Assembly (NCBI GenBank): GCA_027044945.1
Contig: JALUBK010000038.1
Coordinates: 8,635 to 72,634, forward strand
DNA: 64,000 bases
Direction of reading: 5' to 3'
Source of the DNA: Campylobacterales bacterium
GTDB taxonomy: Bacteria; Campylobacterota; Campylobacteria; Campylobacterales; JALSKU01
Shown here: positions 21,844-31,126 of the stretch, one piece after another
Layout: each line of letters starts with the position of its first letter
Numbering within the stretch: position 1 is the stretch's first letter
Position numbers and translations under genes: made by a program
Notes under the pieces: generated by a model
Told to the model about the DNA's origin: nothing
Seen by the model: the letters and a program-made list of their open reading frames with translations, nothing else
Database searches by the model: none

Positions 21844-22356
21844 TTAAAATGGAGGACCTTTTAACAAAATATTTGTTATTTTAGATGCTTCTTGTGGAGG
21901 CATTTTTGCCATTATTTTTGATATTTTATTTGCTTCAAGATTAAAAAGTATTTTTGCAGCTTCGTTTGCTTTCATTGAAGAGAGTATTTGTGCAGCAGCA
22001 GAAGCTCTCATTTTTGAATAAGTCTCACTAATTTTATCATCTTTAGCTTTTTTAATAGCCTTTAGTAATTCTTTGTTTTCTTGAAGCATATTTTTAATAT
22101 TTGTTTCTTTTTGCTTAATTTGTATCAATGTAGCATTTATTTCTTTTTCTTTTTTTTCAAGCACTATTTTTTTCTTATCAAGAAGTGCATTCGTTGCAGC
22201 TCTTAAAGCATCATAAGCCTCTCTTGCATTATCTATTTGTTCTATTTTTTGTTCTAATTCACCTTTTCTTTGGTTGAAAATTTGATTACATTCATAAGTT
22301 TGATCAGCCGCAAATAATGTCTTTAAACAAAATAAAAAAATAATTATTTTTTTCAT
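21844..22356 (-). CDS. Secreted coiled-coil protein with a MgtE_N / MotE-like domain (Cj1496c-like)
   Basis: 170 aa with signal peptide MKKIIIFLFCLKTLFA and a coiled-coil middle. The C-terminal region SAAAQILSSMKANEAAKILFNLEANKISKIMAKMPPQEASKIT resembles the MgtE N-terminal / FlbB / MotE repeat. Its start overlaps the upstream gene's stop by 4 nt. Confidence 0.5.
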   Translation of the reverse strand: MKKIIIFLFCLKTLFAADQTYECNQIFNQRKGELEQKIEQIDNAREAYDALRAATNALLDKKKIVLEKKEKEINATLIQIKQKETNIKNMLQENKELLKAIKKAKDDKISETYSKMRASAAAQILSSMKANEAAKILFNLEANKISKIMAKMPPQEASKITNILLKGPPF

Positions 22357-22865
22357 GATATTTTCTCTAATAATTTTAATAATCCATTTATAAGATCTAT
22401 CGGCTCAGGAGGACAACCTTTGATCCATAAATCAACTTTTACATCACTCATGATTCCATCTTTTATAGCATAAGAATCCTTAAAAACTCCTCCATCCATT
22501 GTGCAATCTCCGACTGCTATAACATATTTTGGATTTGGAGTTAATTCGTATGCATTATGCAAAGGATACTCCATGGCTTTAGTCAAAGGACCTGTTATCA
22601 TCAAAGCATCTGCAAATTTTGGAGAAGGCACAAAAGAAATTCCAAATCTTTCAAGATTATAATACGGATTTGAAAGAGCATTTATTTCTACTTCACAAGC
22701 ATTACAACTTCCTGTGTCAATTTCTCTTATAAAAAAACTTCTCTTAAAACTTTTATTTATTGAATCTTTTAATTTTTTTCCTAAAATTTCTATATTTTCA
22801 TTTGTAAATTCCAAATCTTCAGTCAAAATTTTATTTTTAAATCTTATTTTTGCTATATCTATCAT
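22353..22865 (-). CDS. NuoB / HycG / HyfI-like small subunit, [4Fe-4S] ligands retained
   Basis: 170 aa. Four cluster cysteines are in canonical contexts: TGSCNACEVE (C54, C57), GDCT (C121), GCPP (C151). GAGGAG Shine-Dalgarno 5 nt upstream. Confidence 0.85.
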   Translation of the reverse strand: MIDIAKIRFKNKILTEDLEFTNENIEILGKKLKDSINKSFKRSFFIREIDTGSCNACEVEINALSNPYYNLERFGISFVPSPKFADALMITGPLTKAMEYPLHNAYELTPNPKYVIAVGDCTMDGGVFKDSYAIKDGIMSDVKVDLWIKGCPPEPIDLINGLLKLLEKIS

Positions 22866-22888
22866 TTTAGCTCCTCAACTCTATTATT

Positions 22889-24409
22889 CTAAAGGTCATT
22901 GCCCGCATAACTCAAACTTAAACTTTTATTAACAAGCGGAAAATCACCTATAACATCACCTAAAACTGCAAATTGTATACTTTGCCAATTCATAAAAGAT
23001 GGATCTCTTGGCTTAAATCTAACAATTTTTTTATCTTTTATTTTAACATAAATAGATATATTACCTCTACTGCTTTCACTGTATCCAAAAGTTTCCCCAT
23101 CTTTAATCTCTCCAACTACTCTAAGCTCTGGATTTTTAATTTGTGAAAGATAATCAAAACAAACATTTAAAATATAAAAGCTATTTTTTATATCGGAAAT
23201 TTTTACTTTTATTCTATCATATACATCTCCCTCTTTTTGAACCATTGAATTAAAATCTATATTATCATAAATTAAATATGGATGTTCTTTTCTAAAATCG
23301 CTTTTTCTCCCACTCCCTCTTGCAGTAAAACCAACACAAGAAAGTTCTTTTATTGTATCTTTTTTTATTCTTCCTGTTGTTTCGAGTCTTTCCAAAATAG
23401 AAGCTGATTTGTGCAAAATTTCTACCCATTTGTCAAATTTTTTTTCAATTTTCGATAAAAGTTTTAAACAATTTTTTGTATCAACTATAATATTTTTACC
23501 AACACCGCCAATAACAATAAAATCTTTAAAAAATCTATTTCCGCTTAATTTTTTAATAATTCTCATGATTTCTTCTTTTAAGGCTGAAATACCAGCAGAG
23601 CCAAAACTATATCCCGCATCTTGAAAAATTCCAGATACATCAGAAAGCAAACAAGAAATTCTTTCAAATTCAGCACCAATTACTCGTAAATATTTAGCTG
23701 ATTTTGAAACTTTTATATTTGATATTTTTTCAACTGCCATAGCATATGCAAGAGAATAAGAAAGTGCATTATCTCCAGAAATTCTTTCGCTTATTTTTAA
23801 AACTTCATCTATGCTTTTGCCAACACATAATTTTTCTATCCCTCTGTGAGTATAAAAATGTCTAATTTCTAATTGTAAAATAGGCTCTCCGGACATTCCA
23901 AATCTAAAATGACCCGGTTCAATAACACCTGCATGAATTGGACCAACCAAAACAGTATAAACCCCTTCACTTGTTATATCTTTTGTTTTGTATTCTTTAT
24001 AAGTTTTTGGAACTTCATCAATAGAATTTTTAAAAGGGTGAAAATTTTCTGGATACACTTCACTATGCAAGCATAAACTTCTAAGATCAGGATGGTTTAA
24101 AGGTTTATATCCAAAAAGATCATATATTTCTCTTTCAAACCAATTAAGAGCTGGTATTTTTGATGCTAAACTTTCGAAAGAATTATCCTTAACCTCTTGT
24201 TCTAAAAGAAAAAAATAATCCTTTTCTTTATAAGCATATAAATATTTTATTTTGTTTCCATCTGCAAAAGCATTACATAAATCACAATCCAAATCATTGA
24301 AAATAAATAAAGATAAAGATGACAAATTATCTGTTTTTATTTTTATAAGATTATCAACCTCAACAAAATCTTTGATATAATAATCAACTCTTTTAAATAA
24401 ATTTTTCAT
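22889..24409 (-). CDS. Fused NuoC-NuoD / HycE / HyfG-like large subunit lacking the NiFe-binding cysteines
   Basis: 506 aa. NuoC-like block NWFEREIYDLFGY.P.NHPD. Large-subunit block GPIHAGVIEPGHFRF...LEIRHFYTHRGIEKL. The L1 position reads ERISGDNALSYS (expected R.CG.C...H). The C-terminus reads SLSLSYAGNDL (expected DPC..C..R/H). No Cys occurs in the last 89 residues. Confidence 0.85.
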   Translation of the reverse strand: MKNLFKRVDYYIKDFVEVDNLIKIKTDNLSSLSLFIFNDLDCDLCNAFADGNKIKYLYAYKEKDYFFLLEQEVKDNSFESLASKIPALNWFEREIYDLFGYKPLNHPDLRSLCLHSEVYPENFHPFKNSIDEVPKTYKEYKTKDITSEGVYTVLVGPIHAGVIEPGHFRFGMSGEPILQLEIRHFYTHRGIEKLCVGKSIDEVLKISERISGDNALSYSLAYAMAVEKISNIKVSKSAKYLRVIGAEFERISCLLSDVSGIFQDAGYSFGSAGISALKEEIMRIIKKLSGNRFFKDFIVIGGVGKNIIVDTKNCLKLLSKIEKKFDKWVEILHKSASILERLETTGRIKKDTIKELSCVGFTARGSGRKSDFRKEHPYLIYDNIDFNSMVQKEGDVYDRIKVKISDIKNSFYILNVCFDYLSQIKNPELRVVGEIKDGETFGYSESSRGNISIYVKIKDKKIVRFKPRDPSFMNWQSIQFAVLGDVIGDFPLVNKSLSLSYAGNDL

Positions 24410-29433: not shown

Positions 29434-29849
29434 ATTTTTCTCCTACTAAAATTCATAACAGAAATTTCATCAATCATTTTTTGTTCCTCTTTTTTATCTT
29501 TTTCTATTTTTTCTTTAATAATCAAATCCTCGAGATATTTAACCTTCTCAAATTCAATTAATGCAGTTTTATAATCTTTTTGCAGTTTTGATAATTTTTC
29601 TTTTTTTTGTATAAGCAAAAGCTGTTTTTCTTTTTTTGAATGAATAAGTGTTTCGAAAGAATAATTGTAAGCCATTATAATAGAAAATTTTCCACTCTTT
29701 GGACTTTTTAAAGATTTTATATCGTTTATTATTTTTTCTATTTCAAATTCGTTTTTTTTTATTTCTAAATTCAAGATAGTTATAGTATTCTCTATTGTTT
29801 CAATTTTTTGTTTTTTGATTTTTAACAATTGAGAATACTTTGTTTTCAT
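29430..29849 (-). CDS. FliJ-like coiled-coil protein (HP0256 / Cj1497c-like, from memory)
   Basis: 139 aa, all-helical and Lys/Glu-rich. N-terminus is MKTKYSQLLKIKKQKIETIEN. It lies immediately downstream of purA, as I recall for H. pylori HP0255-HP0256. Confidence 0.45.
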   Translation of the reverse strand: MKTKYSQLLKIKKQKIETIENTITILNLEIKKNEFEIEKIINDIKSLKSPKSGKFSIIMAYNYSFETLIHSKKEKQLLLIQKKEKLSKLQKDYKTALIEFEKVKYLEDLIIKEKIEKDKKEEQKMIDEISVMNFSRRKI

Positions 29850-29866
29850 TTTTTGTTTAGTAACCC

Positions 29867-31126
29867 TTAATTTAACAAAATAGTTTCTTTTCTATCAGGT
29901 CCTGTTGAAATAATACCGATTTTTGTTCCCACTAATTCTTCAATTTTTTTAATATATTTTATTGCATTTTCCGGCAAATCTTCATATTTGTTAATCCCCT
30001 TAAGTTTTCCCCAACCATCAACTTCTTCATACACAGGTTGAACATTTTCAAGAGATGAAGGAAAATCATAAGTTTTTTTGCCGTCTATTTCATAAGCTGT
30101 GCATATTTTTATTTTTTCAAAACCATCAAGAACATCAAGTTTCATAAGAGATAAAATATCACAACCATTAAGTCTGCTGGCATATCTACAAGCTACTGCA
30201 TCAAACCAACCACATCTTCTAGGTCTTCCGGTTGTTGTGCCAAATTCATGTCCATTTTTACCAAGGATTTTTCCCTCTTCTCCCAAATCTTCAGTCGGAA
30301 AAGGACCATTTCCTACTCTTGTGCAATAAGCTTTTACAATTCCTGTTACTTTTCCAATATCTTTTGGATTCAATCCAAGACCACTACAAGCTCCCGCAGA
30401 GATAGTATTTGAGCTAGTTACAAAAGGATAAGTTCCATGATCTATATCTAAAAGTGTTCCTTGAGCTCCCTCCAGCAAGATTTTTTTATCTTCTTTCAAT
30501 AGCTTCCATATCAAGTGAGTAGTGTCGCATAAAAACGGTTTTAAAAATTCCGCATATTCAGATAACTCTTTTTCTAAAACATCTTTGTTCGGTATTTTAA
30601 TATTTAAAGCTTTAAAATACTCTTTATTATTATTAAAATAATCTTCAAGTGAATAAATAAGTTTTTTAATATCTCTTAATTCTCCAAGTCTATGTCCATT
30701 TCTTTCGACTTTTAAGCTATATGCAGGACCTATGCCTTTACCAGTAGTTCCTATTGCCTTTGCTCCTCTTAACTCTTCTCTGGCTTGATCAATTTCTTGA
30801 TGAAAATTTAAAATCATATGAGCCTTATCGCTTATAAAAAGTTTCCCTTTTATGTCATCAAAACCATTATCTTTAATCTCTTGCATAAAAGCTTTAGGAG
30901 AAAATACTACGCCATTACCTATAATATTTATTGCATCTTTATTTAAAATACCTGAAGGGACCAAATGCAAAGCTAGTTTTTTGTCTCCCACCACTATCGT
31001 ATGTCCAGCATTGTGTCCACCTTGATATCTTGCGACTACATTATATTTTTGTGCAAGCATATCAACAATTTTACCTTTTCCTTCATCTCCCCACTGAATT
31101 CCCACTATCATATCAGCTTTATTCAT
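29867..31126 (-). CDS. purA: Adenylosuccinate synthetase
   Basis: 419 aa; [15 protein letters not shown]-loop, GGHNAGHT and [10 protein letters not shown] motifs. Confidence 0.97.

Follow-up and report, generated by a model that had tools for sequence, protein, structure and literature searches.

Gene content of the locus

The window (the whole 64,000-nucleotide stretch of DNA analyzed, from an uncultured Campylobacterales bacterium) carries a six-gene operon for a NiFe-less membrane complex of the Ehr (Ech-/energy-converting-hydrogenase-related) type between the flagellar genes fliJ and flgY, which adjoin each other in all relatives without this insert. The minus-strand open reading frames (ORFs) around fliJ, the Ehr operon and flgY follow one another with little or no spacing. 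Compared loci are numbered from L001 onward, and lengths are given in nucleotides (nt) or amino acids (aa). The features of the locus are:

31119-31973, minus strand: hisZ-like ORF upstream of purA
29867-31126, minus strand: purA, adenylosuccinate synthase (Pfam and NCBIfam; 578.6 bits against a cut-off of 402)
29430-29849, minus strand: fliJ, flagellar export protein of 139 aa (PF02050, 49 bits against a cut-off of 28.4)
29430-29446, minus strand: left junction AGGAGAAAAATATGA, where the fliJ stop TGA overlaps the ehrA ATG; left copy of an imperfect direct repeat
22353-29433, minus strand: insert of 7,081 nt, the six-gene Ehr operon ehrA-B-C-D-L-S (indel relative to L091, and family matches)
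27448-29433, minus strand: ehrA, HyfB/NuoL-like antiporter subunit of 661 aa (NCBIfam hydrogenase 4 subunit B, 667 bits; Proton_antipo_M)
26511-27446, minus strand: ehrB, NuoH/HyfC-like, 311 aa (PF00146 NADHdh, 112 bits)
25853-26503, minus strand: ehrC, HyfE-like, ~215 aa (NCBIfam hydrogenase 4 membrane subunit, 87 bits, under the cut-off of 136)
24406-25884, minus strand: ehrD, HyfF/NuoN-like antiporter subunit (NCBIfam hydrogenase 4 subunit F, 446 bits, under the cut-off of 610); its real start is probably at ~25848, giving 480 aa as in the gene call of L008
22889-24409, minus strand: ehrL, fused NuoC-NuoD/HycE-like large subunit of 506 aa (alignment to HycE, 7z0s_E)
22353-22865, minus strand: ehrS, NuoB/HycG-like small subunit of 170 aa (alignment to HycG, 7z0s_G, and MbhJ, 6cfw_J)
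22353-22367, minus strand: right junction GAGAAAATATCATGA, where the ehrS stop TGA overlaps the flgY ATG; right copy of the imperfect direct repeat
21844-22356, minus strand: flgY, periplasmic E-ring protein of 170 aa (MotE/FlbB/YlxF family; PF03448 MgtE_N, 32.7 bits against 25.9)
21231-21788, minus strand: DUF507 protein of 185 aa (PF04368, 235 bits)
20108-21229, minus strand: carA (CPSase_sm_chain and GATase, from the precomputed Pfam annotation of the identical gene in L008)

At the left end of the insert, the last codons of fliJ read AGT AGG AGA AAA ATA TGA and overlap ehrA as ATGA, with AGGAG 6 nt 5' of the ATG. At the right end, the last codons of ehrS read GAG AAA ATA TCA TGA, and flgY (ATG AAA AAA) overlaps as ATGA at 22353-22356, so that the junction reads GAGAAAATATCATGAAAAAA. 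An initial annotation, made from the letters of this DNA, had described both stop/start overlaps, and the sequence bears them out, with AGGAG 6 nt rather than 7 nt upstream of the HyfB-like ATG. Its assignment of the 139-aa protein to FliJ and of the 170-aa protein to MgtE_N was upheld by profile searches above the cut-offs (49 versus 28.4 and 32.7 versus 25.9 bits). The 7.1-kb, six-gene NiFe-less complex that it had placed exactly at the fliJ/MgtE_N junction is the 7,081-nt indel described here, with a large subunit that lacks the NiFe cysteines. Both its claim of a conserved purA-fliJ-MgtE_N-DUF507-carA backbone and the C. jejuni and H. pylori neighborhoods that it gave agree with the synteny and literature given below.

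Conservation of the contiguous fliJ-flgY pair

Synteny was scanned with DUF507 homologues as the anchor, taking one genome per species, which gave 80 loci (Sulfurospirillum, Campylobacter and uncultured Campylobacterales); the window proteins were mapped onto these loci, including by tblastn. Every locus on a long enough contig showed the order hisZ-purA-fliJ-flgY-(spacer)-DUF507-carA-PAS kinase, and the purA-fliJ-flgY-DUF507-carA backbone, with fliJ and flgY adjacent, was found in about 65-70 loci from Campylobacter, Sulfurospirillum and uncultured relatives. A 4-nt overlap of fliJ stop and flgY start was counted in 59 of 70 loci, and nothing lay between fliJ and flgY in any of the ~70 other Campylobacterota loci. 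Family-level relatives (L011-L016 and L100; purA 78-81% identical) have the 4-nt overlap in register and no relic of a cassette, and a metagenome scan with FlgY added one more family-level empty site, none closer. The native fliJ 3' end in the family is AAAAGGAGAAATAT(T/G)TGA, which places the flgY Shine-Dalgarno (SD) sequence and start codon inside the last fliJ codons. The spacer between flgY and DUF507 differs in length among species, being 59 nt at its shortest and 8.5 kb at its longest. This spacer is the usual variable spot of the backbone, with larger inserts in L021, L027, L030, L032, L037, L024 and L089.

A place for flgY beside fliJ is already known from many phyla, and wider relatives of the pair are fliJ-ylxF (Bacillus), FlbB (Borrelia) and MotE (alpha-proteobacteria). 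In C. jejuni, Cj1497c is FliJ, whose mutant has no flagella, and Cj1496c directly downstream is FlgY (PMC4073491); in H. pylori, purA/HP0255 is followed by HP0256 and the secreted HP0257 (PMC2864241), and HP0257 is FlgY (PMC12054838). The window pair resembles Cj1497c-Cj1496c and HP0256-HP0257 in protein families and sizes, with purA upstream and DUF507-carA downstream. Unlike those pairs, its two members stand 7.1 kb apart, fliJ being coupled to ehrA and flgY to ehrS.

Filled, empty and scarred alleles among close relatives

Among relatives with 94 to 98% DNA identity, the site occurs in filled and empty forms. The cassette is present in the lineage of the window (with L008, L009 and L093) and in a second lineage (L095 [GCA_027008085.1], L096 and L099) that is 98.4% identical to the window in the cassette part and 98.1% in the flank (DNA). 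A clean empty site is found in L091 (GCA_054029975.1) and L092, which have ~94% DNA identity and share gene order over >13 kb. L091 aligns to window positions 37000-29437 and 22355-18074 with 5 nt between the two blocks, making the cassette a clean 7,081-nt indel; its fliJ/flgY overlap is GTGA, and its 139-aa FliJ has a C-terminus in register with the family. The L091 FliJ end, AAAAGTTGGTGA, was considered as a second deletion scar, because AAAAGTTG recurs in ehrS, and was rejected, as the junction keeps the register of the family consensus and a scar would call for extra deletions.

A scarred empty site is found in L097 and L098, both ~95% identical to the window, where ~90 nt of the ehrS 3' end lie between fliJ and flgY (L097 10404-10501; JGI 3300003873 Ga0062599_1000037). 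The relic encodes DIKVDLWIKGCSPEPIDLINGLLELLRKN before a stop, the counterpart in the window EhrS being DVKVDLWIKGCPPEPIDLINGLLKLLEKIS, also before a stop, and it is 88.8% identical to window DNA versus ~95% in the flanks. The FliJ end of L097 is altered by a frameshift (...KRNGYKS before the stop, 141 aa). Judged by this alignment, the relic is the decaying remainder of a deleted cassette. Synonymous divergence (dS) of fliJ between L097 and L099 is 0.06, and that of purA, flgY and carA is ~0.22, which suggests either local recombination or a recent shared ancestry of this segment alone; the low value fits descent of the segment from a filled allele. The endpoints of the L097 deletion show a possible microhomology, T[A/T]AAAAG.

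Comparison of these alleles at the sequence level shows an insertion into an ancestrally contiguous fliJ-flgY pair, exactly at its 4-nt stop/start overlap. Because cassette and flank identities match (98.4% versus 98.1%), it also shows a single, recent insertion that predates the split of the window and L095 lineages and has been lost at least once. A single lineage at species level, among uncultured and flagellated Campylobacterales, harbors the cassette; it is classed as flagellated because fliK-flgD-flgE are in the window at 51-56.5 kb. These genes belong to a flagellar hook cluster on the plus strand (51067-56545) that comprises fliK (Flg_hook), flgD, an FlgE/F/G-like gene (486 aa) and flgE (583 aa).

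Identity and relatives of the Ehr cassette

Compared with E. coli HycE (7z0s_E), the window large subunit EhrL has RISGDNALSYS in place of RVCGICGFAHS and SLSYAG in place of DPCYSC, so that all four NiFe cysteines are replaced (C to S, N, S and G). Since the two NiFe motifs, L1 (RxCGxC) and L2 (DPCxxC), are both replaced, the complex is not a group 4 [NiFe] hydrogenase. The Cys-free motifs ISGD[NH] and SL[NS]LSYAGNDL were found in 119 of 119 aligned EhrL homologues, bacterial and archaeal, some of them named from Venenivibrio, Methanoperedens and ANME-2 archaea. Motifs so well conserved where the NiFe ligands have been lost suggest that another kind of site is maintained there, and not plain decay. 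The small subunit EhrS keeps its four [4Fe-4S] cysteines, with CNAC, GDC and GCPP conserved relative to HycG (7z0s_G) and MbhJ (6cfw_J). By its subunit families, its Cys-free large subunit and its small subunit bearing [4Fe-4S] ligands, the cassette is assigned to the known NiFe-less Ehr family, whose role is described as unknown (PMC7894505, PMC6349859, PMC10284858). By analogy with other Ehr complexes, it presumably encodes a redox-driven, ion-translocating membrane module.

In composition, the cassette parallels Geobacter sulfurreducens GSU0739-45 (EhrA, EhrC, EhrL, EhrS), as compared by the description in PMC7894505. It shares with Ehr complexes two antiporter-like subunits, a NuoH-like and a HyfE-like subunit, and large and small subunits. 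Unlike the known Ehr operons, that of the window lacks a promoter region of its own, lying within the purA-fliJ-flgY unit, its large subunit is a NuoC-NuoD fusion, and no partner oxidoreductase (formate dehydrogenase, NuoEF) adjoins it. The best solved-structure sequence matches were E. coli formate hydrogenlyase (FHL)/Hyf (7Z0S) and Pyrococcus membrane-bound hydrogenase (MBH; 6CFW), with E values for EhrL of 5e-50 (7Z0S) and 6e-39 (6CFW) and for EhrS of 1e-33 and 5e-30, respectively. Modules of the membrane arm are common to all three. Unlike FHL and MBH, the window cassette has no NiFe site, no HycF/NuoI-type ferredoxin subunit, no HycB and no FdhF, and hyp maturation genes are absent nearby. 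A search of the accessible literature found no report of Ehr in Campylobacterota.

Relatives with 56-80% identity in the large subunit have the same six genes in five unrelated contexts, all without fliJ or flgY:

L004, L005 and L006: operon with its own 350-nt leader; convergent gene with CxxxCxxC, probably radical SAM (by eye)
L010: Na+/H+ exchanger gene
L002 and L003: in tandem with a paralogous cassette; adjoins rarA and rluD
L007: upstream of a dihaem cytochrome c gene (PF09626), with the ATG of that gene overlapping the ehrS stop
L001: a MORN-repeat gene comes next

The dihaem cytochrome c of L007 may hint at what the redox partner of Ehr is. In distant relatives, a second, paralogous cassette (34-37% identical), partial or complete, precedes the Ehr operon, its large-subunit stop overlapping the ehrA start (L007 8428-9422, L001 27-593, L002 1-4955 and L007 491-1864). 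The 350 nt upstream of the stand-alone operon in L004 (1-351) are non-coding; the first 140 nt of them have a higher GC content and close with a hairpin and a T run (GACAAGCAGTTGTCGTTTTTTT). This part of the leader could represent a terminator or the 3' end of an RNA gene.

FliJ and FlgY

The FliJ family is poorly conserved, and a low score against TIGR02473 is to be expected. The window FliJ scored 24.9 bits against that model's cut-off of 50.45, having passed Pfam PF02050; by tblastn it is 34-36% identical to the gene that follows purA and precedes flgY in Campylobacter showae, C. gastrosuis and other loci. Ratios of nonsynonymous to synonymous divergence (dN/dS) across all allele types were 0.13-0.3 for fliJ and 0.05-0.13 for flgY, which indicates purifying selection. 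For FliJ, a role in flagellar type III export is consistent with this selection and with the flagellar genes in the window.

In FlgY, the MgtE_N match, to a domain of the ARM-like type, covers residues 93-164 in the C-terminal part, and homologues carrying PF03448 are named MotE family or PDP protein. An AlphaFold2 model (mean confidence, pLDDT, 91.4) has a long helix at 2-115 and head helices at 118-126, 130-138, 142-150 and 154-166. A Foldseek search with this model returned 9a67_B (the FliF-YlxF model) at the top, then the MgtE N-domain and FliG. By eye, the protein has a putative signal peptide, MKKIIIFLFCLKTLFA|ADQ, with a KK n-region, a hydrophobic core and an A-x-A-like site. A 2026 review describes FlgY/FlbB/MotE/YlxF as the sole protein of an ancient E-ring surrounding the MS-ring, and evidence of the cryo-electron tomography type is on record for FlgY in C. 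jejuni and H. pylori (PMC13023049, PMC12054838). The neighbor of flgY is most often fliJ and/or fliK (PMC13023049). In the window organism, flgY adjoins neither fliK nor, since the insertion, fliJ, from which it lies 7.1 kb away. As the adjacency to fliJ was lost through the insertion, its loss is no argument against the orthology of FlgY.

A microhomology model for the insertion

Overall, we consider that the Ehr operon was inserted at the fliJ/flgY overlap by a microhomology-mediated event and is now a read-through-transcribed passenger without a flagellar part, a reading to which we give a probability of about 0.8. The insert is flanked by the imperfect direct repeat GAGAAA[A]TATA[G]TGA. 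The two copies are the native 3' ends of fliJ (left) and ehrS (right), genes that also occur in genomes without the insertion; in the relative L004, the native ehrS end is TTGAGAAAAATTTAA. The left junction is AGGAGAAAAATATGAC in the window (tabulated as GGAGAAAAATATGAC) and AAAAGGAGAAATATATGAC in L099 (tabulated for L095/L099 as GGAGAAATATATGAC). The right junction is GAGAAAATATCATGAA in the window and GAGAAAATATAGTGAA in L095; in L095 and L096 it contains GAGAAAATATAGTGA, with TAG as the stop and GTG as the start.

Integration would have occurred by microhomology between the fliJ 3' end (GGAGAAATAT-NTGA, comprising the flgY ribosome-binding site and start) and the ehrS 3' end (GAGAAAATATA-NTGA). 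The route may have been one crossover of a circular or tandem intermediate, which would show a head-to-tail ehrS-ehrA join, GAGAAAATATA[AG]TGACATTTTTC, or else two short-homology joins. Either would have duplicated an "SD-spacer-NTGA" module. In this scheme, the AGGAG before ehrA would be the former flgY ribosome-binding site, so that ehrA inherits the ribosome-binding site and coupling of flgY, and flgY would have been re-coupled to ehrS, served by the look-alike ehrS end. The duplicated module would explain why coupling is seen at both ends of the insert. L095/L099 is the less derived of the filled lineages. The window lineage would later have acquired a two-base change at the right junction (TAGTG to TCATGA), by which the GTG start of flgY became ATG. 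Having no upstream region of its own, the cassette would depend for its transcription on read-through out of the purA/fliJ unit. G+C content at third codon positions (GC3) is equal in the cassette and its flanks, and the donor would therefore have been compositionally similar. A search for the donor found the closest non-self large subunits to be 75-80% identical, and clusters at 90% identity held this lineage and its 98% sister only.

These features are like those of indels by microhomology-mediated (illegitimate) recombination and of flexible gene cassettes: a presence/absence polymorphism at 94-98% DNA identity, borders with short imperfect direct repeats, a deletion that left an imprecise scar, and no recombinase. 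Unlike the usual indels of this kind, the target here was the overlap of a translationally coupled pair, and microhomology at the SD and start regenerates coupling on both sides.

Several points weigh against this reading. The microhomology model is drawn from just two products, with no donor found, and the repeat is short, imperfect, AT-rich and recognized post hoc. The 10-mer GAGAAAATAT has an expected count of 0.88 per 64 kb, and the chance of the repeat at the second junction is estimated, likewise post hoc, at roughly 10^-3 to 10^-2. Co-transcription and translational coupling are deduced from gene spacing only, and scans for promoters and terminators over 19.5-36.5 kb found sites no more numerous than in shuffled sequence. 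In principle, L091 may have reached its clean site by losing the cassette precisely, for instance through recombination with an empty allele, and so need not show the ancestral state. Finally, the lack of a link between Ehr and the flagellum is argued from distribution, and L001 has a FliL-domain/TPR protein ~3 kb from its Ehr cassette.

Alternative explanations

Because the window is a metagenomic scaffold, nearly identical to the 77-kb metagenomic scaffold L008, an assembly error has to be considered, in which an Ehr contig would have been joined into one that carries purA-carA. Both junctions recur, however, in independent assemblies or samples: L009 (an independent assembly) spans purA-fliJ-ehrA with 100% identity, L093 (from another sample) spans the ehrS-flgY junction with the same proteins, and L095 and L096 (right) and L099 (left) carry the junctions in the 98%-identical lineage with substitutions of their own. 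Together with the ehrS relic at the same site in L097, this leaves mis-assembly with a vanishingly small probability. We also consider it highly improbable that the cassette stood between fliJ and flgY ancestrally, in the clade or family, and that all empty genomes are secondary losses. The empty allele of L097 is demonstrably such a loss, and L091 could have lost the cassette precisely by recombination with an empty allele, but family-level relatives, Sulfurospirillum and Campylobacter all have the in-register 4-nt overlap and no relic, dozens of scarless deletions would be required, and the L091 FliJ has 139 aa with its C-terminus in the family register. Equally hard to sustain is the idea that the cassette was cargo of a transposon, integron or integrative island with a site-targeting recombinase. 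It occupies different loci in related genomes, and its short flanking repeats superficially resemble a target-site duplication; the repeat is nevertheless imperfect, with indels, and its copies are the native fliJ and ehrS ends. The 7,081-nt insert holds the six ehr genes only, with no recombinase gene, integrase, transposase or tRNA, and a repeat search across it gave AT-rich low-complexity matches and no terminal (inverted) repeats.

The initial annotation had offered two alternatives, seamless acquisition of the cassette by a conserved operon or functional cooperation of the complex with poorly understood motility or envelope proteins. The first is borne out by the empty site, the scar and the junction microhomology; the second finds no support, given the distribution of the cassette and its loss in L097. 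Nor are the flanking proteins poorly understood any longer, as Cj1497c is FliJ and the MgtE_N protein is the E-ring protein FlgY. Under cooperation, Ehr would have been recruited to work with FliJ and FlgY, for instance by translocating ions or by redox activity in the service of type III export or the periphery of the motor, and its position and coupling would be under selection. The ATGA overlaps are tight at both ends, the insertion broke a highly conserved overlap yet persists in two lineages ~2% apart, the change from TAGTG to TCATGA improves the flgY start codon, and a FliL-domain protein is encoded near the Ehr cassette of L001. Against this, the arrangement recurs in none of ~70 other loci, the five other Ehr contexts are free of fliJ and flgY, the family extends to archaea, which have no bacterial flagella, and L097 deleted the cassette with fliJ and flgY intact and constrained. 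The coupling, moreover, is explained by duplication of a pre-existing SD-NTGA module, and the L001 gene is in a separate unit past an oppositely oriented gene. Cooperation is therefore very unlikely. A related version, in which the flagellar system co-opted Ehr in this lineage, for instance as a local source of ion or redox activity for FliJ/FlhA-dependent export or at the E-ring/stator periphery, and in which the regenerated coupling and the TAGTG to TCATGA change were selected for co-expression, is no likelier. A milder speculation is that stop/start overlaps with an embedded SD may be general microhomology targets for splicing one operon into another without polarity.

As close relatives lack or have deleted the cassette, it appears to be a recent and dispensable passenger rather than a new flagellar component, and we infer that Ehr takes no part in flagellar export or the motor. 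The case for flagellar cooperation is unsupported because the flanking genes are known, the linkage is confined to one species-level lineage, and the cassette was lost in a sister without damage to fliJ or flgY. The cassette is thus an Ehr family member in an unusual and transient genomic position, and neither a new flagellar component nor a new kind of molecular system.

Nature offers the site in a series of four states: the filled site, a filled site whose junction has been refined, the empty site and a site scarred by deletion. This series documents a whole operon that was spliced into the overlap of a coupled pair and then removed, probably by way of microhomology. Natural populations that are near-isogenic but differ in the Ehr operon could help to assign its physiological role.

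Further observations

Downstream of the Ehr cassette in L001 (~1.2-7 kb away, at 8906-14956) and past the oppositely oriented MORN gene is a run of genes for a 165-aa protein (no Pfam match), a Sel1-repeat protein (537 aa), a FliL-domain and TPR protein (474 aa) and an 845-aa protein (no Pfam match). The FliL-domain gene was considered as a linkage of Ehr to the flagellum and rejected, since a gene in the opposite orientation stands before it, placing it in another unit, and its FliL domain is joined to TPR repeats. In the window, a 360-aa ORF at 17130-18212 on the plus strand, whose L097 counterpart is on record without a Pfam match, is the sole plus-strand gene within the long minus-strand run.

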